From Gammaproteobacteria bacterium (GTDB lineage Bacteria; Pseudomonadota; Gammaproteobacteria; UBA9214): 64,000 nt of DNA. Position 1 is the stretch's first letter. Every line of letters begins with the position of its first letter. Below the pieces are notes generated by a model. That model saw nothing but the letters and a program-made list of their open reading frames with translations. It did no database searches and was not told where the DNA came from. Positions 9,406-27,838 of the stretch are shown here, piece by piece. A program made the translations under genes and the position numbers. The stretch is taken from positions 1,026-65,025 of the forward strand of contig JAOUBY010000001.1 in assembly GCA_029860045.1 (NCBI GenBank), in the 5' to 3' direction.

Positions 9406-10986
9406 ATGACTGACAATATTCATGCCCACCGGATCCTGATACTGGATTTCGGCTCCCAGTACACCCAGCTGATTGCGCGCCGCGTGCGTGAACTGGGTGT
9501 CTATTGCGAGATCTTTCCATGGGATATCGAGCCGGAAAGAATTGAAGAATTTGCCGCGCGCGGCTTCATCCTGTCCGGCGGACCCGAGACGGCCACGGCT
9601 GCCGAGGCCCCGCGTGTACCGGAGGTCGTGTTTTCCAGTGGCATGCCCGTGCTTGGTATTTGCTATGGCATGCAGAGTATGGCGGCACAGCTCGGTGGCC
9701 AGGTGGAGAACGCCGATCACCATGAATACGGTTATGCGCAGGTGCGCGCGCGCGGGCATTCCCGCCTGCTCAAGGATATCGAGGATCACGCCACCGAAGA
9801 TGGTTACGGCCTGCTCGATGTATGGATGAGTCATGGCGATCGCGTCATGCAGTTGCCGGAAGGATTCAAGGTGATTGCCAGCACCGACAGCGCGCCTATC
9901 GCCGGCATGGCGGATGACGCACGCGGTTACTATGGCATCCAGTTCCACCCGGAAGTGACGCACACCCACCAGGGCGGCCGGATCCTGCAGCGTTTCGTGA
10001 TCGAAATCTGCGACTGTGATGCACTGTGGACGTCGGATCATATCGTCGAGAGCAGCATCTATGATATTCGTGCACAGGTTGGTAGCGGCAAGGTGCTGCT
10101 GGGCCTGTCCGGTGGCGTCGACTCTTCGGTGGTTGCCGCCCTGTTGCACAAGGCGATTGGCGACCAGCTGGTGTGTGTGTTTGTCGATAATGGACTGCTG
10201 CGCCATCACGAGGGTGACCAGGTGATGGCCACCTTTGCCGAGCACATGGGCGTGCATGTTATCCGGGTTGATGCCGAACAACGCTTCCTGGCTGCGCTGG
10301 AAGGCGTGGCGGACCCGGAGCAGAAACGCAAGGTCATCGGTAACCTGTTTATCGAGGTGTTCGAGGAAGAGGCCGGCAAGCTGCCTGAGGATACCCGCTG
10401 GCTGGCACAGGGTACGATTTATCCCGACGTGATCGAGTCGGCCGGCGCCAGCACCGGCAAGGCGCACCTGATCAAGTCGCATCACAATGTCGGTGGCCTG
10501 CCCGAGGAGATGAAGCTGGAACTTCTGGAGCCGCTGCGTGAGCTGTTCAAGGACGAGGTGCGCAAGCTCGGCGTTGAACTCGGTCTGCCCTATGACATGG
10601 TCTATCGCCACCCCTTCCCGGGTCCCGGTCTGGGCGTGCGCATCCTCGGCGAGGTGAAAAAGGAATACGCCGACTGCCTGCGCCTGGCCGATCACATCTT
10701 CATCGAGGAACTGCGCAATAATGACCTGTATGACAAGGTCAGCCAGGCCTTCACGGTGTTTCTGCCGGTGCGTTCGGTGGGGGTGACCGGCGACGGGCGT
10801 CGCTATTCCTGGGTGGTGGCATTGCGTGCCGTGGAGACTATCGATTTCATGACGGCCCGCTGGGCGCACTTGCCCTATGAATTCCTGGATACGGTATCGC
10901 GTCGTATCATCAATGAAGTGCCGCACATCTCGCGCGTGGCGTACGATATTTCCGGCAAGCCGCCGGCGACCATCGAGTGGGAATAG
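9406..10986 (+). CDS. guaA: GMP synthase (glutamine-hydrolysing)
   Basis: 526 aa; [26 protein letters not shown] start, ends ...PATIEWE like E. coli GuaA. Confidence 0.95.
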
Positions 10987-10997
10987 GGAAAGTTGCA

Positions 10998-11231
10998 CAA
11001 CATGCGGACTTCTTTCCGCAGCCGCATCAGTTCCTCGCGTTCATCCGCACCCAGCCCCGCACCGGGAGCCGCTTCCTCGAACTCCCGCTTCCAGCGCCGT
11101 ATCAGGTTATCCCCAATACCCAGGCTCCGGGCTGCCTCGGAGGGCTTGTAACCCTGTTCTGTTACCGGCGCCACTGCATCCCTCTTGAATTCTTCCGTGT
11201 AATCCCGTCTCTTTCTCGTCTCTGTTGTCAT
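10998..11231 (-). pseudogene. IS3-family transposase OrfA N-terminal fragment (HTH)
   Basis: MTTETRKRRDYTEEFKRDAVAPVTEQGYKPSEAARSLGIGDNLIRRWKREF...LMRLRKEVRML, then unrelated residues; no orfB downstream. Confidence 0.6.
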
Positions 11232-11294: not shown

Positions 11295-11381
11295 AGCATA
11301 CAGGGGTTGCTGAAAATGACTTGCCGCAGGACCTGCCGCGTTCACTGCAGATCGATATCAAGGCATAGAAGGAGTCGTCCT

Positions 11382-13130
11382 GTGAAAGGGCAAGGTAAGT
11401 CTGTGCTACTTATGGCCTTTACAGCATTAGCTTCGGTAATCGGGCTTTTGTTTGGCGGACTACTCGGGATTTGGCCGGCTGATGCATGGGCGGCTATTGA
11501 GTTGGGCACCGGTAATAAATCCGTGGCGGAACTGGGCGCACTGGTTCTCGGGGGGATCGGGATTTTCCTGGTCGGGATTCATTTTGCCGGTGAACATTTT
11601 CAGCAAATGACCGGTAGCGGTTTTCGGGAAAAAGTCACGAATGTCAGCGAGCGTGGGATCGGCGAGTTATTTGCCGGCCTGTTCCTGGGCTTCTTTACCC
11701 AGAGCGGCAAGGCTGTCGCATTCATCCTGGCTGGTTTTGTGCAGGCGAATCTACTGAAAGTCAGGGAAAGCGGGCCGATCATCTTCTGGGGCAATGTTGG
11801 CAGCAGCCTGATCATCTTTTTATCCATGCTGACGATTAAAGTCTTTGCGCTGATCGTGCTTGGCGTGACAGCGCTCGGGCTGACATTTCGCGCTCCCAGG
11901 AAACTGGTGCATGCTCATGGCGCGCTCTTCGGCATCGCCATGATCATGTACGGGCTATTCCTGGTCAAGGAGGGTGCGGGTGGATTCGCGGGAAGTGCCT
12001 GGGTACACACCGTGCTGGAAGGCATGGCCGGTCTTTACCTGCCCGCATTCCTGGCCGGGATGCTGCTGACAGTACTGATCCAGTCCAATATAGCCATGGT
12101 ACTGATTGCAGTCGCGCTGGCTTCCGCCGGATTGTTGAGCCTGGAAGAGGCTGCGATGTCGATCTATGGGGTGCAGGCCGGCACAGGTATACTGACTTAT
12201 ATATTTTCCTCGAACGTGCATGGCCGCGCCAGGCAGGTCGTCATGGGTCAGGTCGCGTTCGATGCGATTACGACCACCGTGTTTTTCCTGATCTTCTTTG
12301 TGGAGAGCTTTTCCGGCCTGCCCCTGGTGTTGACCCTCGCAAGGACTGTCGTCGGAGATCCGGGCGGTCAGGTGATTGTTTTGGCATTGGGGTTTCAACT
12401 GGCGGGTGCGTTGATTCTTCTGACAGTCAGGAAACCTGTGTACGATTTCATCGAGCAGCGCTTTCCGCCATCCACAGCAGAGATACTTTCGGCCACTGAA
12501 TTCCTGCATGACCGGGCGGCAGAGAGCCCCAGTACGGCGTTACTGCTGCTTGAGAAAGAGCAATCCCGGTTGCTGGGAAGGTTGCCGGCGTATATCGATT
12601 TTGCGCGGCCGGAAACCGATCGGGCCGGCTTGCCGAGCCCTGCGGATTACCATGACGCATTCGGGAGTATCAACCAAACGATTAGTGCTACATTCAGCGC
12701 GATGTCGAGGAGGCGCCTGGCAACGGAAGTATCGGAAAGGCTGATACAGGTCGCAAAATCACAGGAGCAGCTTGTCAGCCTGGAGGGTTACGTGTATCAG
12801 CTCGTCAGTCACTTCTCCACCGTTGATCATGGCGGAAAGGCTGAAGAACTCGGGCGAAACATTCTGGAAAGCGTCGACTTCATGATTCTGACTGCAATCG
12901 ATGCAATAGAGTCCAAAGACAGTGGGGAGGTCGAGACGCTGGAACAGCTGACCCAGGATCGTACCGAGATGATGAAGAGGTTACGGCAGAATTATTTCGC
13001 CAGCGAACGGCAAATGACAGAAACTGAACGCAATTTCGTGCTCGATGTCACGATGTTGCTGGAGAATGTGGTCCAGACACTGGCGCGTTATGGCGGATTG
13101 CTTGAGTCTGAGGCAGGCGCTCCGGGTTAG
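11382..13130 (+). CDS. Na+/phosphate cotransporter family protein (NptA/YjbB-like) with C-terminal PhoU-like domain
   Basis: Multi-TM N-terminal half with duplicated Na/Pi-cotransporter repeats; soluble helical C-terminal half. Start taken as GTG 11382 with AAGGAG RBS (alternative ATG 11412); the ORF-track N-extension from 11307 was rejected. Confidence 0.7.
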   Translation: MKGQGKSVLLMAFTALASVIGLLFGGLLGIWPADAWAAIELGTGNKSVAELGALVLGGIGIFLVGIHFAGEHFQQMTGSGFREKVTNVSERGIGELFAGLFLGFFTQSGKAVAFILAGFVQANLLKVRESGPIIFWGNVGSSLIIFLSMLTIKVFALIVLGVTALGLTFRAPRKLVHAHGALFGIAMIMYGLFLVKEGAGGFAGSAWVHTVLEGMAGLYLPAFLAGMLLTVLIQSNIAMVLIAVALASAGLLSLEEAAMSIYGVQAGTGILTYIFSSNVHGRARQVVMGQVAFDAITTTVFFLIFFVESFSGLPLVLTLARTVVGDPGGQVIVLALGFQLAGALILLTVRKPVYDFIEQRFPPSTAEILSATEFLHDRAAESPSTALLLLEKEQSRLLGRLPAYIDFARPETDRAGLPSPADYHDAFGSINQTISATFSAMSRRRLATEVSERLIQVAKSQEQLVSLEGYVYQLVSHFSTVDHGGKAEELGRNILESVDFMILTAIDAIESKDSGEVETLEQLTQDRTEMMKRLRQNYFASERQMTETERNFVLDVTMLLENVVQTLARYGGLLESEAGAPG

Positions 13131-13137
13131 TGTCGTT

Positions 13138-13596
13138 GTGCATTACTCACTTACCCTGAATAACCAACTCACGGATATTGCTCACCTGAATGAGAGCATC
13201 GAGAGTTTTTCGATCCGCGCAGGACTGAATCAACGGCTTTCGCTGCAGATGAAAGTAGTGTTGGATGAAATCGTCGGGAACATTATTAAATACGGTTTTA
13301 CAGACAACCGGAACTCATCTGGCAAAATCAATGTCGAAATAGCGATATCCAGTGACACCCTGATTCTGATCGTCACTGACAATGCTCGATTCTTCAACCC
13401 ACTGACTCAATCCAGGCCTGATTTATCAAGCAATCCCGAAAACAGAGAATTAGGCGGCCTGGGCATCTACATTGTTGGTAAAATCATGGACGAAATGCAG
13501 TATCAGCGAATCGACGGCAAAAATGTGCTGACATTGTCCAAAAGCATCCCGGATGAATCTGTCAGTGGTGATCGACCTGACTCGAAAACCATTTAA
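13138..13596 (+). CDS. anti-sigma regulatory factor / serine-protein kinase (RsbW/SpoIIAB-like HATPase)
   Basis: HATPase_c_2-like (ELGGLGIYIVGKIMDEMQY G-box); likely GTG start 13138 just after the upstream stop (ORF-track ATG 13045 would overlap it by 86 nt). Confidence 0.7.
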   Translation: MHYSLTLNNQLTDIAHLNESIESFSIRAGLNQRLSLQMKVVLDEIVGNIIKYGFTDNRNSSGKINVEIAISSDTLILIVTDNARFFNPLTQSRPDLSSNPENRELGGLGIYIVGKIMDEMQYQRIDGKNVLTLSKSIPDESVSGDRPDSKTI

Positions 13597-13608
13597 CGGA
13601 AAATTTGT

Positions 13609-13950
13609 ATGAAAGTTATTCTGACTTACACGGAAAGTATATTGGTTGCACAATTTAACGGCAGCCTGGACACAGTCACGGCGCCCGAGGCTGAAACACA
13701 ACTGATGAACAAGGTTGATGAGGGTGCAAAATTCATCGTGATTGATTTTGGTATGACAGAATATATTGCCAGCTCCGGCCTGCGGGTGCTGCTGAAGCTT
13801 TCCAGGACATTAAAGAAGCAGGGAGGCCGTGTTTCTCTTTGCCGGGGTAATCAGCAGGTGCAGGAAGTGCTGGAGATCAGCGGTTTCCTGCAAATATTTG
13901 AGCATTTTCCTACTCTGGAAGAGGCGATGAATTCTGTCACTATGGCGTAA
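13609..13950 (+). CDS. STAS-domain anti-sigma-factor antagonist (SpoIIAA/RsbV-like)
   Basis: 113 aa; conserved phosphorylatable Ser in DFGMTEYIASSGLRVLL. Confidence 0.8.
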   Translation: MKVILTYTESILVAQFNGSLDTVTAPEAETQLMNKVDEGAKFIVIDFGMTEYIASSGLRVLLKLSRTLKKQGGRVSLCRGNQQVQEVLEISGFLQIFEHFPTLEEAMNSVTMA

Positions 13951-13965
13951 GCATCCCAGCGACTG

Positions 13966-15552
13966 TTAACACTTGTCATCCAGCCTGGTATGAATCGCCA
14001 TCATCGTAATGTCATCTGCCTGTGGTGCTTCATCCGCAAATCGATCAATATCTTCAATCACAGCTTTTAATATCGTCTCAGGGTTGGCCTTTAACTGCCC
14101 ATTTAAAAGTTCCACAAGGCGCGGCACGGAATATAATTGCCCTTCCATGTCTTTCGCCTCGGTCACGCCATCGGTGTATAAAAACAGGGTGTCACTGCTC
14201 GAAAGTTGATGATTCCCATTTTCGTACACGGCCTTATCCAGTACGCCCAGGGCGATACCCGGCTTGCATTCCAGGTTTGTAACACCATCTGCAGGCGATA
14301 AAACAAACGGCGAATCGTGCCCGGCTGAGCAGTACACCAGTTTGCCAGTCTGTAAATCCAGCACGCCGCAAAATACCGTCACGAACATGCAGGCATCATT
14401 GTTGACACACAGCTCCCTGTTAACCGATTGCAGCAAATCGCCGGGTTGGGAATAATTATTGGCCTTGGTCCTTAGCAAGGTGCAGGTCATTGACATGAAT
14501 AATGCCGCTGGCACGCCTTTACCGGCAACATCACCGATTACAAAAAACAGCTTTCTGCCAAACTCACCGGTTTTTGAATCTGCGCCGTGTTCGCCCAGGT
14601 AAAAACAATCGAAAAGATCTCCGCCCACTTCTTTGGCCGAGCGCACCATGGCATAAACAATTACGTTCTTGTGCAGTTTCTTCAAGGTGGCCTGATCCGG
14701 CAGCATTTTTAGCTGGATTTCCCTGGCTACAGCCAGTTCAGTGTTAATCCGCTCCTGGGCTGCGACATTGCTGGCCAGGGTTTTAACTGATTCTGCGAGG
14801 GCGTCCTCCATGAAAATAAATGATTTGGCCAGCTCGCCAATTTCATCGTGTGAGTGACTGGTCAGTCGCGCAATTTCGTGCTTGAAGCAGTCGATATTTT
14901 CAATATCCACGCTGGCCAGTTTTTCAGCGTGCCGGTTCAGAACAGTTAAGGGCTGCGAGATTTTATCGATCAGAAAGTACGTAATGATGATACTCAGGAT
15001 CATTAATAATAAAACGATGCCCTGCTGCTGCAGGATAATAGACAGAATCTGATCCTTGATCAGGCTTTTATCCATACCCACCAGCACGTAACCCGCCTCA
15101 CCGCCTAAAATGGGTGAAACAATGTTTTGATGACGCTCCATTTCGTGGATGTCATTGTCAAACGTACCGGCCCGGTGGTTTACCAGGTCAAGCTTCAAAT
15201 TGTGCGTGAGTTGCGCAATATCATTCGGGATACCCGGAACAAAAGTGTGTGCAACGATGTCACCCGCCCTGTCGGCTATTAACACATGAGAAACACCCTC
15301 AACTCCCAGGTATTCATCAATCGTGGATTGCAGTGCCGCCGGGTTATCTGCCATCAGGGCCGCAATGCTCGCTTCGGCCAGAATGCTGCCGATAGAATGG
15401 CCTTTGACGTCAAACTCCTGTGTCATGCCGGTGTAGATCGACCAGGCAGATAATATTGAGATGCTGGTCGAGATCAACCCGAACAGCACCACTACAACAA
15501 TGAGAGTTTTTTTAAAGAGGCGGGACACCGGGACTCCAGCCTGACCAATCAT
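13966..15552 (-). CDS. membrane HAMP-PP2C (SpoIIE/RsbU-type) serine phosphatase with periplasmic sensor domain
   Basis: 528 aa; two TM segments flanking a ~130-aa periplasmic region, a HAMP-like linker, then PP2C motifs (GGDLFDCF, VIGDVAGKG, DGVTE); convergent with the STAS gene. Confidence 0.8.
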   Translation of the reverse strand: MIGQAGVPVSRLFKKTLIVVVVLFGLISTSISILSAWSIYTGMTQEFDVKGHSIGSILAEASIAALMADNPAALQSTIDEYLGVEGVSHVLIADRAGDIVAHTFVPGIPNDIAQLTHNLKLDLVNHRAGTFDNDIHEMERHQNIVSPILGGEAGYVLVGMDKSLIKDQILSIILQQQGIVLLLMILSIIITYFLIDKISQPLTVLNRHAEKLASVDIENIDCFKHEIARLTSHSHDEIGELAKSFIFMEDALAESVKTLASNVAAQERINTELAVAREIQLKMLPDQATLKKLHKNVIVYAMVRSAKEVGGDLFDCFYLGEHGADSKTGEFGRKLFFVIGDVAGKGVPAALFMSMTCTLLRTKANNYSQPGDLLQSVNRELCVNNDACMFVTVFCGVLDLQTGKLVYCSAGHDSPFVLSPADGVTNLECKPGIALGVLDKAVYENGNHQLSSSDTLFLYTDGVTEAKDMEGQLYSVPRLVELLNGQLKANPETILKAVIEDIDRFADEAPQADDITMMAIHTRLDDKC

Positions 15553-16744
15553 CGATGCTCACATAATGCCCATCCTGTACGGTGTTGAAATAAACGCTTT
15601 GCAGGCCCTGGTTATTTGCCTCGCTAAAATGCACGCGTTCACCAATCCCGATATCATGGTCAACCAGGGTATTCATGGTGCTTTTAATGTTGGCCCGGTT
15701 TATATCGCCTCCCGTACGCCGTAATATTTCGACCATCAGTTTAGCGTTTAAATAGCCCTCAAAGCTGACAAACCCCAGCTCCTCAAGATCATTTTCCTGC
15801 ATTAACCGGCGATACTCGAGCGCGGCAGGGTAACTATCGTCGTGATAGTTGGGTACCACCTCGGAATTGATCAGGTTGGCGGTGTAGTCCCTGCCGCTTG
15901 ATGATGACTCGGCTACCAGCAACCCGAGCAAACTTTCACTATCGACAAACGAGATATTTGCGATAGGTACAGCCCAATCGGCATTTCTGCTATCCCGGAT
16001 AAATCCGGCCGCGGCGGCGTAGGCGCCTATGGAAATAACCACATCCGGCGTGGATTCCCGCAAAATCTCTACCTGTTGATTAAAACTCTCGTCATAGGGC
16101 GTTCCTCTACGGTAAGTTGCTTCTCCAACAATACTCAAACCATGCTCTTTTAATGCTCTGCGCACGCCATCCCAACCGCTTCTGCCATAGGCGTCTGCCT
16201 GATAAAAAACGGCAATCCTGTCTCTGCCAATGTTGACCAGGTGATCAACCAGGCCCCTGGTTTCCTGGCGGTATGAGGGCCGCAAATTATAGGCGTAAGC
16301 GCTGAATGGCGGCTGACGCTGGGGCTCAGCACCGGTAAAGGGGAAAAACAGCAAAAGATTTTTATTGTCGTAGATATTAAGCAGTGGTAAAACGCGCGTT
16401 ACGGTAGGTGTGCCGATGTAACCGATCAGGGCGGAAACTTTATCTTCCTCAATTAATTTTAAGGTATTTTTTATGGCGGGTTCAGGGTCGTAACCATCAT
16501 CGTATTCTTGCAGACGGATTGACCTGCCGTTGATGCCACCCTGGGCATTAATATGCTCAAAGTAGACGGACATTCCATTGTACAGCGCGCTACCCAGCCT
16601 GGCCGATGTTCCGCTGAATGCCCCGGACATTCCTAGGACAATGTCAGCTTTTTGTGCTGTGGGCTCATTTTGTTTAAGTGGCTTGTCGCTCAAATCATGT
16701 TGGGCAAAACCAACTAGCGGCAGGATCATAAACAAAAGCGCCAT
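15512..16744 (-). CDS. periplasmic substrate-binding protein, type-1 PBP (LivK/branched-chain amino acid-binding-like)
   Basis: Start taken at Met14 (16744), which has an AAGG RBS and a signal peptide MALLFMILPLVGFA; Peripla_BP_6-like pattern; 3' end overlaps the phosphatase start by 41 nt. Confidence 0.7.
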   Translation of the reverse strand: MALLFMILPLVGFAQHDLSDKPLKQNEPTAQKADIVLGMSGAFSGTSARLGSALYNGMSVYFEHINAQGGINGRSIRLQEYDDGYDPEPAIKNTLKLIEEDKVSALIGYIGTPTVTRVLPLLNIYDNKNLLLFFPFTGAEPQRQPPFSAYAYNLRPSYRQETRGLVDHLVNIGRDRIAVFYQADAYGRSGWDGVRRALKEHGLSIVGEATYRRGTPYDESFNQQVEILRESTPDVVISIGAYAAAAGFIRDSRNADWAVPIANISFVDSESLLGLLVAESSSSGRDYTANLINSEVVPNYHDDSYPAALEYRRLMQENDLEELGFVSFEGYLNAKLMVEILRRTGGDINRANIKSTMNTLVDHDIGIGERVHFSEANNQGLQSVYFNTVQDGHYVSIDDWSGWSPGVPPL

Positions 16745-16782
16745 TTTATACCTTGTTGAACGGGTTCTTGCCATGGGCCACA

Positions 16783-17043
16783 TTACTCCAGAAACCCGGG
16801 CATGCGTTTCCTCTCCATCGCGTTGAGTTCGTCAATAATGTATCGGGCTCCCATCAACCTTATTTGAACCGGAAATGATTCCATCACGACGACATTCTCA
16901 TGTATCCCGTCCTCTTCCGACTCCATGACTCGCTCCAAAACGGGATCCGGCGACTCCGCGCTACCCACAATGACAGAGGAAATCATGTCTTTCTTAAAAC
17001 CCGTATCACCGCTATCCGTCATCAAGCATCCTGCGGCAATCAA
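16783..17043 (-). CDS. hypothetical small acidic protein (possible first gene of the SBP-phosphatase operon)
   Basis: 86-aa ORF ending 38 nt upstream of the SBP start; lower-GC; no recognisable motif. Confidence 0.2.
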   Translation of the reverse strand: MIAAGCLMTDSGDTGFKKDMISSVIVGSAESPDPVLERVMESEEDGIHENVVVMESFPVQIRLMGARYIIDELNAMERKRMPGFLE

Positions 17044-17282
17044 GGAATCGGCAGATAGAGCGATTTAGGGTCTGACATGAATTACACCTTGTTACTGTGT
17101 AGTAATGAATGACTGGCGGTTTCGATGCCTTGCCCTCGATGCCACCGGTTATCTCTCATCCGTTTCTTGTACCTGTGCATGACCAGCCCGATGACATCGC
17201 TAACCACGATGTAGCCATAACCGGTAATCGGCTTACGGAAATCCGGATGCGGCATCAGGTCGTTTCGCCCGCTAAATCCCCC

Positions 17283-18482
17283 TCATACGTTGAAGCGGAA
17301 GAGGTGGTAGAAATCCGTCGGGTCGGCGAACACCTGCCGGCCAGAGCCGAAGCCTGCAGCGCGGCCGAGTTCAAGCCACTGATCGGCACCCTCCGGAAAG
17401 TCACAGGTCGACACGTGATCCCACATCTGCTCCCACTCCGGCTTGCTCAGGTAGTCCCATAGCCGGAAGTTTGTCTGCAGGAAGCGTTCCAGGTAAGCCT
17501 CGCGGTCTTCGCCATTGCCACAGGTCGGCTCATAGAGGAGGAAGACACCGCCCCGTCCCAGTGCGTCGTGGATTGCCCTCAGCACGTCGAGTTTGTTGTC
17601 TGTCGCCAGATGGTGGATCGACAGGCTGCACCAGGCAACATCTGCATGCTCGGTGCGGCGTGCCAACGCCTTGAAAAAGTCCCGATGGTCGAGATCGACC
17701 TCGCAAGGCAGTTCAGCCAGGTTGGCCGCAGCCAGCTCCAGCGCCGGCTGTGACAGGTCGATGCCGTGGTAGTGTCGAACCGGGACCCCGTGCAGGGCCT
17801 CCGTCATGATGCTCGCATCGCCGCATGCAATATCGAGAAAGTCAAAGGGCGCAGTGAACCGTTCGGAGAGGGTGGCGTGCAGTATATCTTTTACCTCGCG
17901 GTGTGAGAGCGAGTTGTTCGAGACCAGCTTGCCGTAGGTGGCCCATTGCTGCTGGAACTGGCCGAGAGCCGCGGCATCCAGTACTGCGCCATCCGGTTTG
18001 AACTGATGGATGTGTACATGCCCGCTGTTGATCATTGCCTGCCTCAGTGTGCTGTTGTTACCGGTGCTGGAGACAGCGAACCCCAGGTAAGAGTAAGGGA
18101 TTACCGACTCACAGCTTATCACCCGCTTAATTATGCCCATATCCTGGTGACATTCACCATGCCCTGACGCCAATTTCTCTGCGGCGCCCAAGCGGGAGAG
18201 GGCTATCTGGCAAGGATTCCCGTGCAAAGTCACGGCGCGCTGGGCAAGATTCGTGAATTCATCCTGCGGATCACTGAACGGGTGCTCAAGAGGATCGAGC
18301 GCAGCAGCAACCGGCCCTTGCCGATCGGGATGATCAAGAAGTTGCCCTGCCGTTAGGACGGTGCGGGTTTCCAGGCCCGCGATGTGAACGGCGTCGCTCA
18401 CAGAAAGAGCTCGCGCTGGGCCGGTTGGTTGCGGTGCAGAATGAGTGCCGGCACCGGGTCGGTACACCCGTCGATCAGACAA
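17283..18482 (-). CDS. class I SAM-dependent methyltransferase (start uncertain; possibly at internal Met near 18140)
   Basis: Motif I FLDIACGDASIMTEAL and downstream MTase motifs in the C-terminal ~220 aa; the N-terminal 115 aa is Ala/Pro/Arg-rich and may not be coding. Confidence 0.6.
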   Translation of the reverse strand: MSDRRVYRPGAGTHSAPQPTGPARALSVSDAVHIAGLETRTVLTAGQLLDHPDRQGPVAAALDPLEHPFSDPQDEFTNLAQRAVTLHGNPCQIALSRLGAAEKLASGHGECHQDMGIIKRVISCESVIPYSYLGFAVSSTGNNSTLRQAMINSGHVHIHQFKPDGAVLDAAALGQFQQQWATYGKLVSNNSLSHREVKDILHATLSERFTAPFDFLDIACGDASIMTEALHGVPVRHYHGIDLSQPALELAAANLAELPCEVDLDHRDFFKALARRTEHADVAWCSLSIHHLATDNKLDVLRAIHDALGRGGVFLLYEPTCGNGEDREAYLERFLQTNFRLWDYLSKPEWEQMWDHVSTCDFPEGADQWLELGRAAGFGSGRQVFADPTDFYHLFRFNV

Positions 18483-22461: not shown

Positions 22462-24486
22462 TTACTTGTTCGCGGTCGCGCGTTGTTGTACGCCAGATAA
22501 CGGCACAAACTGGTCCAGCGGTTTCGGTGTGTCGATGCCGAAGCCTTGGGCATAATCAACGCCGATGTCGTGCAGTTTTTCCAGGATCTGGTCATTTTCG
22601 ACAAATTCAGCGATCGTTTCCTTGCCCATAACGTGACCGATTTCATTAATGGAGCGGACCATCGCCTCATCGATCGGGTCGTCTACAATGTCCTTGACGA
22701 AGCTGCCGTCGATCTTGAGATAATCTACCGGCAGGTTCTTTAAATAGGCAAATGATGAGAGGCCGCTGCCGAAATCGTCAAGCGCAAACGAACAACCGAT
22801 TTCTTTCAACCGCGAAATGAATTCCGTTGCTTCGCTGAGGTTGGTAATCGCCGCTGTCTCGGTGATTTCAAAACAGATCTTTCCTGCGGGGACTGCGGAT
22901 TCAGTGAGTAAGTCCAGCAAGTAATCCAGGAACCGGGCATCACTGATCGACTGGCCTGACAGGTTGATCGAGCACTTGCCCAGTTGGTCGGTTATGTGTG
23001 AATTCCTGTCTAACCACTCAAAGGTCGTTTTCACTACCCAGCGGTCCAGGGATGTCATGAGATTGTATCGTTCCGCCGCGGGGATAAATGCCCCTGGCGG
23101 GATCAGTTTACCTTTCTCGTCTTTCATGCGAACCAGGATTTCGATCAAACCCAGCGGGCATGCACCGGTACTGCCGACCGAAATTATTTGCTGACAGAAT
23201 AGCTGGAACCTGTTGTTTTCAAGGGCCTCGTTGATTCGCGCTACCCACTGCATTTCCCCGTAGCGATCAACAATCATTGCGTCGTTCTTCCCGAAAACAT
23301 GAATGCGGTTCCGGCCGGCATCCTTGGCGCTGTAACAGGCGGCATCGGCGGCACTCATGATGTTGGCAATGCCCCCGCTGTCCTTGTCGACCAGTACGAC
23401 ACCTATACTGGCGCCTATTACGAAGCTTTTATCTTCCCATACAAAACGGAATTCCTGGACGGTACTCAACAGGGAATTTGCCACGCTGATGGTGTGTTCA
23501 GGCGTACAGTGCTCCAGTAACACGCCGAATTCATCACCCCCGAGGCGCACCAGGATATCGCTATTGCGTATTTTCTGTTGCAATACCGTCGACAATTGCC
23601 GCAACAGTTCGTCACCTGCAACATGACCACAGGTATCGTTGACTATCTTGAACTGATCCAGATCGATATACAGCATCGCATGTGTTGCTTGCTCAGTGAC
23701 AACGCTTTCCAGTGCCCGCTCCAGGTGGTTCTCGAATTCAAACCGGTTGATCAAGCCGGTAAGGGCGTCGTGACTGGCCTGGTAGGATAACTGTTTCTGG
23801 AGTTTCCGTTCCTGGATGATCTGTTTGAACAGCACATCCTCAGTCTGGCTGGTGCGACGCATGACGAAGAACGCGACAACAATGCCGACAGCGATCGCTA
23901 TGGCCAGCAGGATGCCGATAAATACGACTGTTTCGCGATAAGCTTCCCTGGACTCGTCCATTGCGCGCCTGGCGGCGACCTGCTGATACTCCAGCATCTG
24001 GCCTAGTTGCACCAGGACTCTGTCCTGTGCAGGGATTGCATGGTCGAACAGCAACCGGGTGGCACGCTCCGCTTCTTCGTCTACCAGTAACTGTACAACC
24101 TGCTCTTGCAGGGGAACTGACTTGGCCGTCAGTCTTCCCTGCTCATTGTGTAAGGTCAACTCCTCTGGCCCCAGGCCTTTCTTGCTGAGTGCGATGCGGG
24201 CCAGGGCAAACTCCGTTGCCAGCCCGTTCATGCGCATATATTCTTCGTCCCGATCGAAGGGGTCCTTCTGGTTCACCATTCTCAACAGGCTGATGGACCG
24301 CTCGCGGGCGGCATTGTACATGTCGATAATGTGATCAGTTTTTACGTTGTACTGGTCAACGATTGTCTCCATTCTTTGTTTGTTTTCAGCCATCCGGGTG
24401 AGGCCAACCGCCGCCACCATGACCACCAGCGCCATGACGGCTGCAAAACTCACCAGGATGCGGAATTTAGAAGAGATGGTCGACAT
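22462..24486 (-). CDS. membrane sensor GGDEF-EAL protein (diguanylate cyclase / phosphodiesterase)
   Basis: Two TM segments flanking a periplasmic helical domain, then GGDEF (RLGGDEFGVLL) and EAL (EITET...DDFGSG) domains; start at MSTISSKFRIL. Confidence 0.8.
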   Translation of the reverse strand: MSTISSKFRILVSFAAVMALVVMVAAVGLTRMAENKQRMETIVDQYNVKTDHIIDMYNAARERSISLLRMVNQKDPFDRDEEYMRMNGLATEFALARIALSKKGLGPEELTLHNEQGRLTAKSVPLQEQVVQLLVDEEAERATRLLFDHAIPAQDRVLVQLGQMLEYQQVAARRAMDESREAYRETVVFIGILLAIAIAVGIVVAFFVMRRTSQTEDVLFKQIIQERKLQKQLSYQASHDALTGLINRFEFENHLERALESVVTEQATHAMLYIDLDQFKIVNDTCGHVAGDELLRQLSTVLQQKIRNSDILVRLGGDEFGVLLEHCTPEHTISVANSLLSTVQEFRFVWEDKSFVIGASIGVVLVDKDSGGIANIMSAADAACYSAKDAGRNRIHVFGKNDAMIVDRYGEMQWVARINEALENNRFQLFCQQIISVGSTGACPLGLIEILVRMKDEKGKLIPPGAFIPAAERYNLMTSLDRWVVKTTFEWLDRNSHITDQLGKCSINLSGQSISDARFLDYLLDLLTESAVPAGKICFEITETAAITNLSEATEFISRLKEIGCSFALDDFGSGLSSFAYLKNLPVDYLKIDGSFVKDIVDDPIDEAMVRSINEIGHVMGKETIAEFVENDQILEKLHDIGVDYAQGFGIDTPKPLDQFVPLSGVQQRATANK

Positions 24487-24991
24487 CGTCTGATTTAATT
24501 TAACCGGTACCCGCGCCGGGGGCAGCCGCATTGAGGCGGCCAGGTGCGACGCATTCAAGTATAAGTTCCTGTTTTTCAATATCTCCCATAGCAATAGCCC
24601 CGACGGCGATGGGTAGCCAGTTCGCATCACTAGTTGAGGGATTGGTTCTTCGTTATAGGCTAGCGGTCAACATTTGGATTTCATTAGTTTCTTATCCGGG
24701 AGTGATTTACTGATTTCTTGTCGGAATCACACGGCACACAGGACCCCGACCATTGCAGAATGACTGCAAAGTCTCGAATTACGGCCGATACTGTTTTACC
24801 GGTTCTGGATTAGTGGGGCTGAGATAACTAACTGATTGCCCGGCCCGGTTATACTCATCACGCGCTTGATTTAAGCGGTGTGCTCAATACACATACTAAA
24901 AAGAGGGCGATGTGCCGAATCAGGGAAGGGATATATCGGGGGCCGGCGCGCCACTTGCATTTGTTATCCTGATGCGTTGGCTGCGTAATTA

Positions 24992-27838
24992 ATGAAAATC
25001 AAGGGCAAACTTGTTGTGACTTTTGTGTCATTGGCGCTTGCTACGCTGATGGTGCTGGGCGCGATTGCCTATTACAGCGCAGAAAACGCACTCTCTGACC
25101 AGGTTCTCGATAACCTGGAGAGTGTTGCCACGACACAAAAACACAGAATTGAAAGCATTATCGAGCAAAACCTGGAAAGGCTTGCCCTGGTCTCTTCAAG
25201 AACCCAGCTACGGATCAGCCTGAAGGAATACATCGCAGAGCCCAATCAGCAGTCGCGCGATAAAATGAACCGTATCCTGGGCGATGCCGCTGTTTCGATC
25301 AGCGACTTGCGCGGGCTTTTCATCCAGACACTTGACGGCCGGATCGTGGCATCTACAGACCCGGCCTTGATCGGCCAGGTATACGCAGATGAGGACTTTT
25401 TCCTCGCCGGCCTGCACGACAGTCGCGCAGACCTGTTTCATCGGGACGAGGCTCATGCTCACCGGCACGGACCCGGGCACCTGGGAATATATCTTTCGGG
25501 GCCGCTGTCCCTGGAGGAGCAGCGGCTGGGCGTGCTGGTCATTGATACTGATGCATCCAACATCATTGAATCGATCACGGACTACCACGGGCTTGGGAAA
25601 ACCGGAGAGACCTTGCTGGTACGTCGCAATAATGCCGGTGATGCCCTGTTCCTTACGCCTGCCAGGTTCGAGCCGGATTCCGCATTGAGCCGAACGGTGC
25701 AAGCGGGCAATTTGCAATCCCCGTTTACCCGGGCCCTGCTGAAACAGGAGCAATTGCTCACTGATGCGGTGGATTATACAGGCAGGGCCGTTATTGCGGT
25801 TACGCGTTACATTGAGAACGCCGGCTGGGGCCTCATTGTTCAGAGACGTAAGGACGATGCGTATGCGCCGATTGTTGCGTTGCGTCACTCCTTGTTGTTG
25901 CTGATCGGATTATCCGCAGTCGCGGTAGTTCTGGCGTCACTGTATATAGCCGGCACCATCACACGTCCAATCATCCGCCTCACGGAGGTTGCAACCCGGA
26001 TCAGTGGCGGGGCACTTGGGGAACGTGCCGAGGTGAGCACGGGTGATGAAGTCGGCATCCTGGCCAGGGCCTTCAACCAGATGACTGAAGACCTGGTTGA
26101 CGATATCAATGAGCGGCGACAGGCTGAGGAAAAATTTCAGGCGCTGCTGAAGTCTGCGCCTGATGCGATTGTGATTGTCGATCACACGGGCCAGATTATT
26201 CTCGCCAACCTGCGCGCAGAGCTGTTGTTCGGCTATAAAAGCGCAGAATTGATTGGTAAGCCGGTCGAGATGCTGGTGTCAAAGCGCCATCGTCATGAGA
26301 CTGTCTCCATGTGGCAAGCCTTCGTTGATGAGCCACACCATCAGCCGATGGAGGATAGTCATGATCAGTACGGGCTGCACAAGGATGGAACGGAGATTCC
26401 AATCGAGATCAGTCTTGCACCTATAGAAACGCGCGAGGGCCTGCTGGTCGCAAGCGCAATTCGTGATATTACCGACCGCAAGGAGGCGGAAACCCGTCTT
26501 GTGCAGCAGGCCAACTTCGATACCCTGACCGGCTTGCCCAACCGGTCACTGGCTGCAGACCGCCTGTCTCAGGCAATGGCACATGCCCGCAGGGCGCGGG
26601 AGTGCGTGGCTGTTATGTTTCTGGATGTTGATCACTTCAAGAATGTCAACGATACGCTCGGACACGCAGCCGGCGACAAACTGCTTACAGAGGTGGCACA
26701 CCGTCTGAGTCGTTGTGCGCGTACTGAAGATACGGTGGCACGTCTGGGCGGTGACGAGTTCCTGATCATACTTTCCGGGCTGAATACAATCACCTCGGCC
26801 AAGGGCGTGGCCGAGAAACTACTCGAAGCATTAAGTATTCCCTTTGCCCTGGACGGACGTGAACTGTTCCTCGGTGCCAGCATAGGTATAACCGGTTACC
26901 CTGAGGATGGTGACGAATCCGATGTCTTGCTGCGCAATGCTGACGCAGCCATGTACCGGGCGAAAGAGGCCGGGAGAAATACCTACCGGTTCTTTACGCC
27001 CGAGATGAATATTCAGTTGCTCCAACGCCTGGAAATGGAGTCTCACCTGCGTTATGCCGTCAGCAAGAAAGAACTGTCACTCCATTTCCAACCACAGGTT
27101 GACATAAAAAGCGGCGAGCTGGTTGGCGCCGAAGCATTGTTGCGCTGGCACAATCCCGAGCTCGGCCATATTGCACCGGATGACTTCATCCCGCTTGCCG
27201 AAGAGACCGGGCTTATTAATGAAATTGGCGAATGGGTGTTGATGCAGACCTGCCAGACGGCCAGGACCTGGCAGGGCAGGGATACTGCTGTTCGTGTATC
27301 GGTCAATATTTCACCCGTACAGTTCAGGGGCGGTGATCTCGTCGAAACAGTGTCCCGAGCACTTCAGGAGAGCGGTTTGCCCGCGTCACTGCTGGATCTC
27401 GAGATCACCGAACGGGTGCTGGTTGAGGACAATCCCAATACAAGCCGTATCCTGAATGACCTCAAGCGGATGGGTATCCGGCTCACACTGGACGACTTTG
27501 GCAAAGGCTATTCGTCGCTAAGTTACCTCAAACGCTTTCCGTTCGACGTACTCAAGATTGATCGGGCATTTGTGTCGAGCGTGACGGTGGACCCCGAGGA
27601 CGCTGCCCTGTGCAAGGCGATTACCGCGATGGCAAGCAGCCTGAGTCTGCTGGTGGTGGCAGAGGGAGTGGAGACGCTGGATCAGTGGGAGTACCTCCAT
27701 ACGCTCGGTGTCGACCTGGCCCAGGGTTACTACATCAGCAGGCCGCTGGGTAATGAGGCATTTATCAGCTTCATAACAGACGCAGAAAGGTTTCTGCTGG
27801 GTCGTGCCGAGATGAACTGGGACCGTCGCGGCATCTGA
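24992..27838 (+). CDS. Cache-like sensor / HAMP / PAS / GGDEF / EAL signalling protein
   Basis: 948 aa; periplasmic domain between 2 TMs, HAMP, PAS (PDAIVIVDHTGQI), GGDEF (RLGGDEFLIIL), EAL (EITERVL...DDFGKGYSS). Confidence 0.85.
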   Translation: MKIKGKLVVTFVSLALATLMVLGAIAYYSAENALSDQVLDNLESVATTQKHRIESIIEQNLERLALVSSRTQLRISLKEYIAEPNQQSRDKMNRILGDAAVSISDLRGLFIQTLDGRIVASTDPALIGQVYADEDFFLAGLHDSRADLFHRDEAHAHRHGPGHLGIYLSGPLSLEEQRLGVLVIDTDASNIIESITDYHGLGKTGETLLVRRNNAGDALFLTPARFEPDSALSRTVQAGNLQSPFTRALLKQEQLLTDAVDYTGRAVIAVTRYIENAGWGLIVQRRKDDAYAPIVALRHSLLLLIGLSAVAVVLASLYIAGTITRPIIRLTEVATRISGGALGERAEVSTGDEVGILARAFNQMTEDLVDDINERRQAEEKFQALLKSAPDAIVIVDHTGQIILANLRAELLFGYKSAELIGKPVEMLVSKRHRHETVSMWQAFVDEPHHQPMEDSHDQYGLHKDGTEIPIEISLAPIETREGLLVASAIRDITDRKEAETRLVQQANFDTLTGLPNRSLAADRLSQAMAHARRARECVAVMFLDVDHFKNVNDTLGHAAGDKLLTEVAHRLSRCARTEDTVARLGGDEFLIILSGLNTITSAKGVAEKLLEALSIPFALDGRELFLGASIGITGYPEDGDESDVLLRNADAAMYRAKEAGRNTYRFFTPEMNIQLLQRLEMESHLRYAVSKKELSLHFQPQVDIKSGELVGAEALLRWHNPELGHIAPDDFIPLAEETGLINEIGEWVLMQTCQTARTWQGRDTAVRVSVNISPVQFRGGDLVETVSRALQESGLPASLLDLEITERVLVEDNPNTSRILNDLKRMGIRLTLDDFGKGYSSLSYLKRFPFDVLKIDRAFVSSVTVDPEDAALCKAITAMASSLSLLVVAEGVETLDQWEYLHTLGVDLAQGYYISRPLGNEAFISFITDAERFLLGRAEMNWDRRGI

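Follow-up and report, generated by a model that had tools for sequence, protein, structure and literature searches.

A secreted binding protein and the Cache-type domain of a membrane PP2C phosphatase as a probable two-protein periplasmic sensor

The locus described here raises the question of whether a secreted periplasmic binding protein (PBP), encoded by a gene that overlaps that of a membrane phosphatase, provides the phosphatase with its signal or is a transporter component that merely lies beside it. The locus is found in the metagenome-assembled genome of a Gammaproteobacteria bacterium, within a 64-kb window (the whole stretch of DNA that was analyzed), to which all coordinates without a locus prefix refer. 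Three consecutive minus-strand open reading frames (ORFs) span positions 13966-17043. These encode a membrane sensor phosphatase (13966-15552) comprised of a transmembrane segment (TM1), a periplasmic sCache-like domain, a second transmembrane segment (TM2), a HAMP linker and a PP2C/SpoIIE domain; a secreted type-I PBP of the Peripla_BP_6 family (15512-16783), belonging to a distinct and conserved 'orphan' subfamily; and a small acidic protein (16783-17043). An earlier reading of the DNA, made from its letters without database searches (the sequence-only reading), had proposed a single input unit made up of the PBP and the HAMP-PP2C phosphatase. The analysis reported here supports this proposal through the near-obligate linkage of the two in other genomes, the non-Liv character of the PBP and the lack of ABC-transporter genes in the window, and it is considered probable (about 0.7) that the two proteins act as a two-protein periplasmic sensor. 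The PBP and its Cache-type periplasmic partner domain make up a widespread two-protein sensing cassette which is apparently undescribed.

The phosphatase and the PBP are encoded by real genes and not chance ORFs, and the small ORF is probably a real gene too; public records of the same contig carry matching gene calls. Read from ATG 15552, the start chosen by metagenome gene callers, the phosphatase is 528 amino acids (aa) long and the beginning of its gene overlaps the 3' end of the PBP gene by 41 nt (ATG 15552 to TAA 15512-15514), just as the sequence-only reading had described. This overlap shrinks to 17 nt with the phosphatase start used by NCBI, GTG 15528 (520 aa, MDH3978891.1), which has the better Shine-Dalgarno sequence (GGAG, with a 5-nt spacer) and lies nearer to the N-termini of most homologs ('M-x-x-S-K-L-F'). 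The two genes overlap with either start. The ORF of the PBP is 423 aa long, with other possible starts at 16774 and 16744, the latter giving the 410-aa protein of the public call.

The association of the two genes was then followed through a collection holding one genome per species, in which the PBP subfamily (55-63% identity) has at least 575 matches across more than 10 phyla, with members in the Gamma- and Alphaproteobacteria, Thermodesulfobacteriota, Nitrospirota, Planctomycetota, Binatia, Latescibacterota, Acidobacteriota and Cyanobacteria. From these matches 80 loci were kept for the survey. Related loci are cited by ids of the form L0xx, of which L091-L093 come from metagenomes. In 76 of the 80 genome loci the PBP gene adjoins one for a membrane protein with homology to the window phosphatase over its N-terminal ~200 aa (phmmer E 1e-26 to 1e-60), and two of the four loci without such a partner are cut by contig ends. 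This sensor-domain protein is encoded by the next gene downstream of the PBP, on the same strand, at 72 of the 80 loci, and at 69 of those 72 the homology to the sensor starts between -35 and +25 nt from the PBP stop.

What lies beyond the periplasmic domain differs greatly between these loci. The output is HAMP-SpoIIE in 8 of the 80, a HAMP-PAS-histidine kinase with or without receiver and Hpt domains in 26 (usually followed by a gene for a single-domain response regulator), a domain of the methyl-accepting chemotaxis type (MCP) in two, and HAMP only in 40, with a highly conserved MFS transporter gene following in 39 of the latter. Precomputed Pfam annotation of the locus contexts agrees with these classes. 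As the linkage persists across such different outputs, the inherited unit, judged from gene neighborhoods, is this PBP together with this periplasmic domain, whatever the cytoplasmic output may be. Linkage of this kind, independent of output, is the pattern expected if both proteins work together in the periplasm. Pairwise distances among the PBPs and among their sCache partners also correlate (r = 0.95 overall and 0.75-0.91 within classes), a result which is only suggestive.

The domain composition of the window phosphatase was established by comparison with protein families and by structure prediction. Its cytoplasmic PP2C/SpoIIE catalytic domain (13969-14655, minus strand) matches Pfam SpoIIE (PF07228) over residues 333-522 with 180.8 bits against a cutoff of 25 (E 3.7e-53). 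The metal-binding motifs of PP2C phosphatases are all present (EVGGDLFD, GDVAGKG, TDGVTEA, and ADDIT) and are invariant in the closest relatives (alignment A4), and sequence matches of this domain in the PDB are Rv1364c, an RssB-type PP2C and SpoIIE. Two hydrophobic stretches, about residues 16-38 and 173-195, enclose ~130 aa that form the sCache_3_2-like periplasmic domain (residues ~39-172; 15037-15438, minus strand), and after the second of them comes the HAMP-like linker (residues ~196-264; 14761-14967, minus strand), which carries an insertion in its connector. In the AlphaFold2 model of the phosphatase (pLDDT 83.7), the N-terminal 265 residues begin with a long TM1/stalk helix and a short helix, continue with a PAS/Cache-like sheet of five strands into which one helix is inserted, and end with TM2 and two HAMP-like helices (residues 217-233 and 237-264). 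The best Foldseek match of this model was the full-length WalK model (E 2.7e-8), with the sensor domains of CitA (1p0z, 2j80), WalK and DctB also matched.

In alignment A2, which comprises the window protein and 46 homologous sensor regions, sCache_3_2 (PF17203) is matched by 46 of the 47 sequences, with relatives scoring 38.8-55.3 bits, and HAMP (PF00672) is matched at E<=1e-3 by 26 of the 47, the window protein included. Homologs of the sensor region number at least 1000. Within the HAMP region, P201 and D236-E237-x-G239 (the DEIGxLA motif) are invariant or nearly so among homologs. The layout given by the sequence-only reading, namely a periplasmic domain of ~130 aa between two transmembrane segments, joined by a HAMP linker to a PP2C domain, is confirmed, with the sCache_3_2-like and HAMP-like parts assigned through homologs and model, as the window protein itself scores below both Pfam cutoffs. 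Residues invariant in the periplasmic domain are E46, Q75, D79, H102-T103-F104, P106, P109, G151, G154, and G159, with no invariant Arg or Lys in the homolog alignment. The carboxylate-binding sCache proteins CitA and DcuS depend on Arg, His and Lys. Given the absence of an invariant Arg or Lys, the residue pattern may, as a weak inference, fit a docking surface better than a CitA-like carboxylate pocket.

The PBP matches Pfam Peripla_BP_6 (PF13458) with 166.1 bits (cutoff 31.7) over profile positions 2-342 of 343. A Sec signal peptide can be recognized in its N-terminal sequence, MARTRSTRYKMALLFMILPLVGFA/QH, and the mature protein would start at about residue 28 of the 423-aa form. The AlphaFold2 model obtained from a 34-sequence alignment has the two-lobe fold of a type-I PBP with a pLDDT of 90.7; this structure prediction and the signal peptide confirm the earlier description of the protein as a secreted type-1 PBP. 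The closest solved structures are 4KV7, 3LOP and 4M88 (Foldseek E 1e-26 to 1e-32, TM 0.78-0.90), after which come LivJ/LivK and binders of hydroxybenzoate, fatty acids and urea at 15-20% identity. There are 3010 homologs at E<=1e-10, and the best 120 have 51-100% identity despite belonging to very different phyla; the mean column identity of the subfamily alignment (A1) is 57%. The loops which form the cleft in the type-I fold are essentially all invariant (GMSxAFSG, Y-x-GTPTV-x-R, FPFTGA, NLRxSY, YQxDAYGRSGWxGV, and ANxSF), and their invariant side chains are hydroxyls, aromatics and arginines.

The output side of the locus has the components of a partner switch. A STAS protein of the anti-sigma-antagonist type, the presumed substrate of the phosphatase, is encoded at 13609-13950 on the plus strand (Pfam STAS 75.9 bits; NCBIfam ant_ant_sig 69.2 bits against a cutoff of 53.45) and contains the conserved phospho-acceptor Ser in the context IASSGL. 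It is preceded on the same strand by the gene of an RsbW-like serine kinase (13090-13596; 168 aa by the public gene call), which matches Pfam HATPase_c_2 with 65.6 bits and possesses the N-box and G2 motifs. Upstream of the kinase lies the gene of a membrane protein of the Na/Pi-cotransporter family (11382-13130, plus strand; 582 aa; Pfam Na_Pi_cotrans 102 bits; NCBIfam NF037997 64.5 bits against a cutoff of 50), the 3' end of which overlaps the kinase start by 41 nt. These three plus-strand genes converge on the phosphatase gene, with 15 nt between the STAS and phosphatase stops. The window thus encodes together a PP2C phosphatase, a STAS protein with the conserved Ser and a HATPase_c_2 kinase, and a matching trio was also identified at L003/L010, L004/L011, L008, L073, L092, and L093.

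Beyond the eight surveyed loci of the PP2C class, SpoIIE partners were also identified at L003, L004, L007, L008, and L091-L093. In genomes 11 distinct loci of this class were seen, from Lysobacterales, Thermodesulfobacteriota, Dadabacteria, Scalindua, cyanobacteria and others, and metagenomes added three more. A STAS gene is adjacent in eight of the 11 genome loci, and six of these eight have the RsbW-like kinase as well. At L004/L011 and L073 the genes run in one direction in the order STAS-PBP-phosphatase-kinase, while at L091:94-2124 and L093:2363-4306 the RsbW-like kinase is fused to the C-terminus of sCache-HAMP-SpoIIE in a single ORF, which at L093 has the PBP gene upstream and the STAS gene downstream. 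This fusion links the phosphatase directly to the switch. A metagenome scan with the alignment of the PP2C class returned the three full-length relatives L091-L093, the other 77 loci being of a generic HAMP-SpoIIE kind without sCache or PBP. Gene calls extending 10 kb to either side of the window module include no Sigma70 domain, and we infer that the switch controls a target other than a neighboring sigma factor.

For the physical docking, direction of regulation, ligand and switch target, the following scheme is proposed. The PBP would be exported and would then bind a small ligand; loaded or empty, it would dock on the dedicated sCache_3_2-type domain of the phosphatase, and the signal would pass through TM2 and the HAMP linker to alter the activity of the cytoplasmic PP2C domain. 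PP2C would dephosphorylate the STAS protein and the RsbW-like kinase would phosphorylate it, with unphosphorylated STAS sequestering the kinase from the kinase's other partner. The state of the switch would in turn control its target, which is predicted to be something other than a neighboring sigma factor.

A number of points weigh against this scheme. The PP2C form is the minority among the genome loci (8 of 80), and at three PP2C-class loci (L012, L036, and L048) neither a STAS gene nor a kinase gene is adjacent. The correlation of PBP and sCache distances is confounded by the shared descent of neighboring genes. Taken alone, the window protein scores below the Pfam cutoffs for both sCache_3_2 (20.3 bits against 28.4) and HAMP (19.5-21.2 bits against 25), and both domains were assigned because the homologs and the model make up for these scores. 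The structural-genomics entries closest to the PBP model name no ligand in their titles. Finally, Cache domains are usually receptors for small ligands in their own right. The sCache domain itself could thus be the ligand receptor and the PBP an accessory to it, acting as a co-sensor, as a buffer or scavenger of that ligand, or as an inhibitor holding the sensor off, much as accessory proteins do for other kinases. The sCache_3_2 family is indeed that of the direct carboxylate sensors CitA and DcuS, structures of CitA and DctB are among the matches of the sensor model, and its best structural match, WalK, is a kinase controlled by accessory membrane proteins. Against such a role stand the lack of any invariant Arg or Lys in the periplasmic domain and the invariance across phyla of all the pocket-forming loops of the PBP, which argues that the PBP carries the specificity. 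We regard a receptor function of the sCache domain with an accessory PBP as rather unlikely, and even so the two would still make a functional pair, so that this would be a variant of the proposed two-protein sensor and not its opposite.

Explanations that place the PBP in transport were also weighed. Were it the orphan binding protein of a distant Liv-type (HAAT) ABC importer, its position beside the phosphatase would be meaningless; its relatives are annotated in the source databases as 'ABC-type branched-chain amino acid transport system substrate-binding protein' and it has the LivJ fold. However, the PBP reaches only 55.2 bits on the NCBIfam LivJ/K model PRK15404, for which the cutoff is 477, and phmmer aligns it with LivJ over the N-lobe only (E 2e-12, about 20% identity), so that the LivK-type label of the sequence-only reading was not upheld and the PBP was rejected as a Liv orthologue. 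No homolog of BPD_transp_2 or ABC_tran, representing ABC permease and ATPase, is present anywhere in the 64-kb window, and 78 of the 80 related loci likewise have none next to the PBP gene. The exceptions, L008 and L058, have a BPD_transp_2/ABC_tran pair within about 2 kb, although at L008 a further binding-protein gene (PF04392) is found about 2 kb upstream of this pair. The sequence-only reading had itself named clustering with Liv proteins and adjacent ABC genes as what would speak against a sensor; the PBP was found to belong to a non-Liv subfamily whose neighbors are sCache proteins and not ABC genes, and the sCache neighbor recurs in 76 of the 80 genomes, which represent more than 10 phyla. 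An origin as an orphan ABC component is thus strongly disfavored. It is also conceivable that the cassette is a transport device in which the PBP passes the bound ligand on to a secondary transporter (mostly an MCT-like MFS protein, here the Na/Pi protein), the sCache/HAMP protein couples the two, and the PP2C, kinase and MCP forms are derived. Consistent with this, 39 of the 80 loci combine the PBP with a HAMP-only sCache protein and a conserved MFS protein, the MFS protein of one of these loci (L041) scores 330.7 bits on the NCBIfam SfMCT L-lactate model (cutoff 320), the Na/Pi gene of the window overlaps the kinase gene, an NCS2 gene overlaps the PBP start at L003/L010, and NCS2 is fused to HATPase_c_2 at L008. 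Nevertheless, no transporter is adjacent in the 26 kinase-class loci, the two MCP-class loci or the PP2C-class loci L004/L011, L073, L012, and L048; the transporters that do occur are of unrelated families (MFS, NCS2 and Na/Pi), unlike what one shared substrate path would give; and no protein related to the Na/Pi protein of the window turned up in a metagenome scan. A transport device is accordingly judged improbable, though less so than an orphan ABC component.

With the two-protein sensor preferred, the identity of the ligand can be considered. The sequence-only reading had suggested an amino-acid-like molecule on the basis of the Pfam class alone, and this suggestion found no support. The residues of LivJ which we take to hold the amino acid are Tyr18, Ser79, Ala100-Thr102, Tyr202, and Glu226, with Glu226 as the counter-charge to the ammonium group. 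In the HMMER alignment of the PBP with LivJ, which at about 20% identity is indicative only, Tyr18 corresponds to Leu50, Ser79 to Thr112, and Ala100-Ala101-Thr102 to Phe136-Thr137-Gly138, while Glu226 falls in a deletion of the PBP. The MFS protein linked to the cassette at L041 matches, besides the SfMCT model, an oxalate/formate family, which associates relatives of the PBP with transporters of monocarboxylate and oxalate-formate type. These residue changes, the MFS association and a sensor domain of the CitA/DcuS family together hint, through guilt by association, at a small metabolite that is polar or anionic, for example a short (hydroxy)carboxylate. We give this at most about one chance in three, and consider such a metabolite likelier than an alpha-amino acid. 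All members of the PBP subfamily very probably share one ligand.

The transporter genes associated with the cassette also bear on what the switch may control. In the window, the region 11382-13950 resembles a transporter-kinase-STAS operon, and the switch may act on the transporter, with the Na/Pi protein possibly its target or partner. At L024, L041 and 37 other loci (for example L041:7962-11324), from Binatia, Bryobacterales, Latescibacterota and Alpha- and Gammaproteobacteria, the unit consists of the PBP, a membrane protein of ~245 aa with sCache_3_2 and HAMP only, and the MFS transporter, often with 4-nt overlaps between the genes, and it may represent a binding-protein-linked secondary transporter. 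A broader proposal is that the PBP and sCache_3_2 domain form an ancient portable front end which mainly controls secondary transporters and not transcription, the switch in the present locus gating transport instead of a sigma factor. This we put forward tentatively, as a possibility that is doubtful at present. If true, the front end would in about half of the genomes be wired through a HAMP-only membrane protein to an MCT-like MFS transporter, and here it would drive a PP2C/STAS/kinase switch whose kinase is co-translated with a transporter of the Na/Pi family; the MFS form would then represent a novel type of secondary transporter (SLC16/MCT-like), one that depends on or is gated by a binding protein.

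Several further arrangements of transporter and signaling genes were observed among the related loci. At L008 an NCS2 permease (xanthine/uracil-type) is fused to a HATPase_c_2 kinase domain, and at L003/L010 the NCS2 permease gene that overlaps the PBP start is located at L003:6836-8059. L008 and L058 both encode a soluble protein of 415 aa with an N-terminal STAS domain together with the BPD_transp_2 permease and ABC ATPase; the transporter links of these two loci lie at L008:3927-6919 and 11314-13068, and at L058:10864-13856. Near the subfamily PBP at L051:11405-16671 and L080:3261-8332 are genes for a receiver-SpoIIE phosphatase, an RsbW-like kinase, a second PBP, a kinase-like protein of ~725-746 aa and a STAS protein, the second PBP being more distant from that of the window (E about 1e-48 to 1e-52). 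In the kinase-class loci (L014, L005 and others) the neighboring response regulator nearly always consists of a receiver alone (~121-131 aa), with no DNA-binding domain, so that the kinase versions of the cassette are also unlikely to act directly on transcription.

Comparison with known systems suggests, by analogy, an input side like that of LuxPQ, TorTS and AioXS and an output side like that of RsbU/V/W. In LuxP-LuxQ, TorT-TorS, ChvE-VirA, BctC-BctE, AioX-AioS and BasB-BasT, a soluble binding protein, whose gene neighbors that of a membrane receptor, docks on the extracytoplasmic domain of that receptor; AioS has an sCache-like domain, and the archaeal BasB/BasT is the only Peripla_BP_6 case in a 2021 review (PMC8050422). 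The receptors listed in that review as stimulated by binding proteins are chemoreceptors, sensor kinases, c-di-GMP enzymes and Ser/Thr kinases, with no PP2C phosphatase among them (PMC8050422). The window pair shares with LuxPQ, TorTS and AioXS the linkage of binding-protein and receptor genes (76 of the 80 loci), but differs in that PBP-sCache_3_2 is a single cassette reused with four outputs. In the literature searched, no published description was found of a Peripla_BP_6 protein with SpoIIE, of sCache_3_2 with a binding protein, of PP2C with a solute binding protein, or for 4KV7.

On the output side, the RsbU-RsbV-RsbW system of Bacillus sigma-B and SpoIIE-SpoIIAA-SpoIIAB likewise bring together a SpoIIE-family PP2C, a single-domain STAS protein with the Ser and a HATPase_c_2 kinase. 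What sets the window apart from RsbU/V/W is that its phosphatase is embedded in the membrane and has both a periplasmic domain for input and a dedicated PBP, that the module has no gene for a sigma factor within about 10 kb, and that the kinase gene overlaps, and is apparently co-transcribed with, the gene of a Na/Pi-family transporter. RsbU of Chlamydia trachomatis is also a membrane-anchored PP2C of a partner switch with a periplasmic domain that takes a metabolite signal. It reportedly binds metabolites directly and we know of no binding protein reported for it, whereas the window has a conserved PBP gene overlapping that of the phosphatase. SiaA of Pseudomonas aeruginosa (SiaABCD), the best NCBIfam match, is another membrane HAMP-PP2C acting on a small partner, but the window protein has another input domain, and genes for SiaB, SiaC and SiaD are missing; orthology to SiaA (NF038263) was rejected as the score was 58.4 bits against an equivalog cutoff of 700 and covered the HAMP-PP2C part only. 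The hcyA-D switch of Nostoc (PMC9127174) was considered as a precedent and set aside as unrelated, having no PBP.

The individual components can be set beside their nearest known relatives in the same way. LivJ/LivK (HAAT) share with the PBP the fold and the Pfam family (Foldseek TM 0.5-0.8, E about 1e-20), yet identity is about 20%, LivHMGF genes are lacking and the ligand-holding positions are not kept. The sCache_3_2 (PASp) domains of CitA and DcuS belong to the Pfam family matched by 46 of the 47 sequences of A2 and share the fold of the model, but the domain of the cassette is without their conserved basic triad, always comes with a PBP, and is here joined to a PP2C output and not to a histidine kinase.

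The third ORF of the locus, which the sequence-only reading had regarded as a possible small acidic member of the module leading the operon, was searched exhaustively with HMMER. This returned 45 homologs at E<=1e-3 and 19 at E<=1e-10, all unnamed, with about 50-60% identity and lengths of 65-140 aa; there was no Pfam or NCBIfam match. It is probably a real small-protein gene given these 45 homologs. In the public calls it starts at ATG 17022 and encodes 79 aa (79-86 aa depending on the start). With the longest PBP ORF its stop codon shares 1 nt with the PBP start (TAATG), whereas the PBP start called at 16744 is 38 nt further downstream. None of the more than 80 related loci has a homolog of it, and two homologs whose surroundings could be read stand among unrelated genes. 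Homologs of the kind sought do therefore exist, but as the small ORF is never linked to the cassette in relatives, its membership of the module was rejected. It may be co-transcribed with the PBP here, yet outside the conserved cassette, and the same holds for the methyltransferase gene upstream.

As for the surroundings of the module, a promoter and terminator scan gave no excess over the shuffled expectation and Rfam gave no match in the 11-19 kb region; neither a riboswitch nor a leader is put forward. The GC content is 0.49-0.51 over 12000-16000, compared with about 0.60 in the guaB/guaA region just upstream, and an ORF with an HTH_Tnp_1 transposase domain is found at 10875-11231, between guaA and the Na/Pi gene; the partner-switch module may lie on an acquired segment. 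The 117-aa ORF at 17109-17462 (plus strand), which gene finders call but which has no family match, runs antisense to the methyltransferase gene (17283-18482, minus strand) at that gene's 3' end and is probably spurious. Two large membrane proteins with GGDEF-EAL domains (4HB_MCP-GGDEF-EAL and dCache-HAMP-PAS-GGDEF-EAL) are encoded at 22462-27838, at most 10 kb from the module, making the region rich in periplasmic sensing proteins.

The general principle of binding-protein-dependent sensing is already established. For PP2C phosphatases of partner switches it is undocumented (PMC8050422), and the present locus would add that class. It would also give a concrete extracellular input to a Gram-negative partner switch, inputs which are mostly unknown for such systems. 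Beyond this locus, a conserved 'orphan' protein of the LivJ fold, present in hundreds of species from more than 10 phyla, is currently labeled in databases as a component of branched-chain amino-acid ABC transport. As this PBP travels with one Cache domain and four outputs, the identification of one ligand would reveal at once what hundreds of kinases, chemoreceptors, phosphatases and MCT-like transporters receive as their input.

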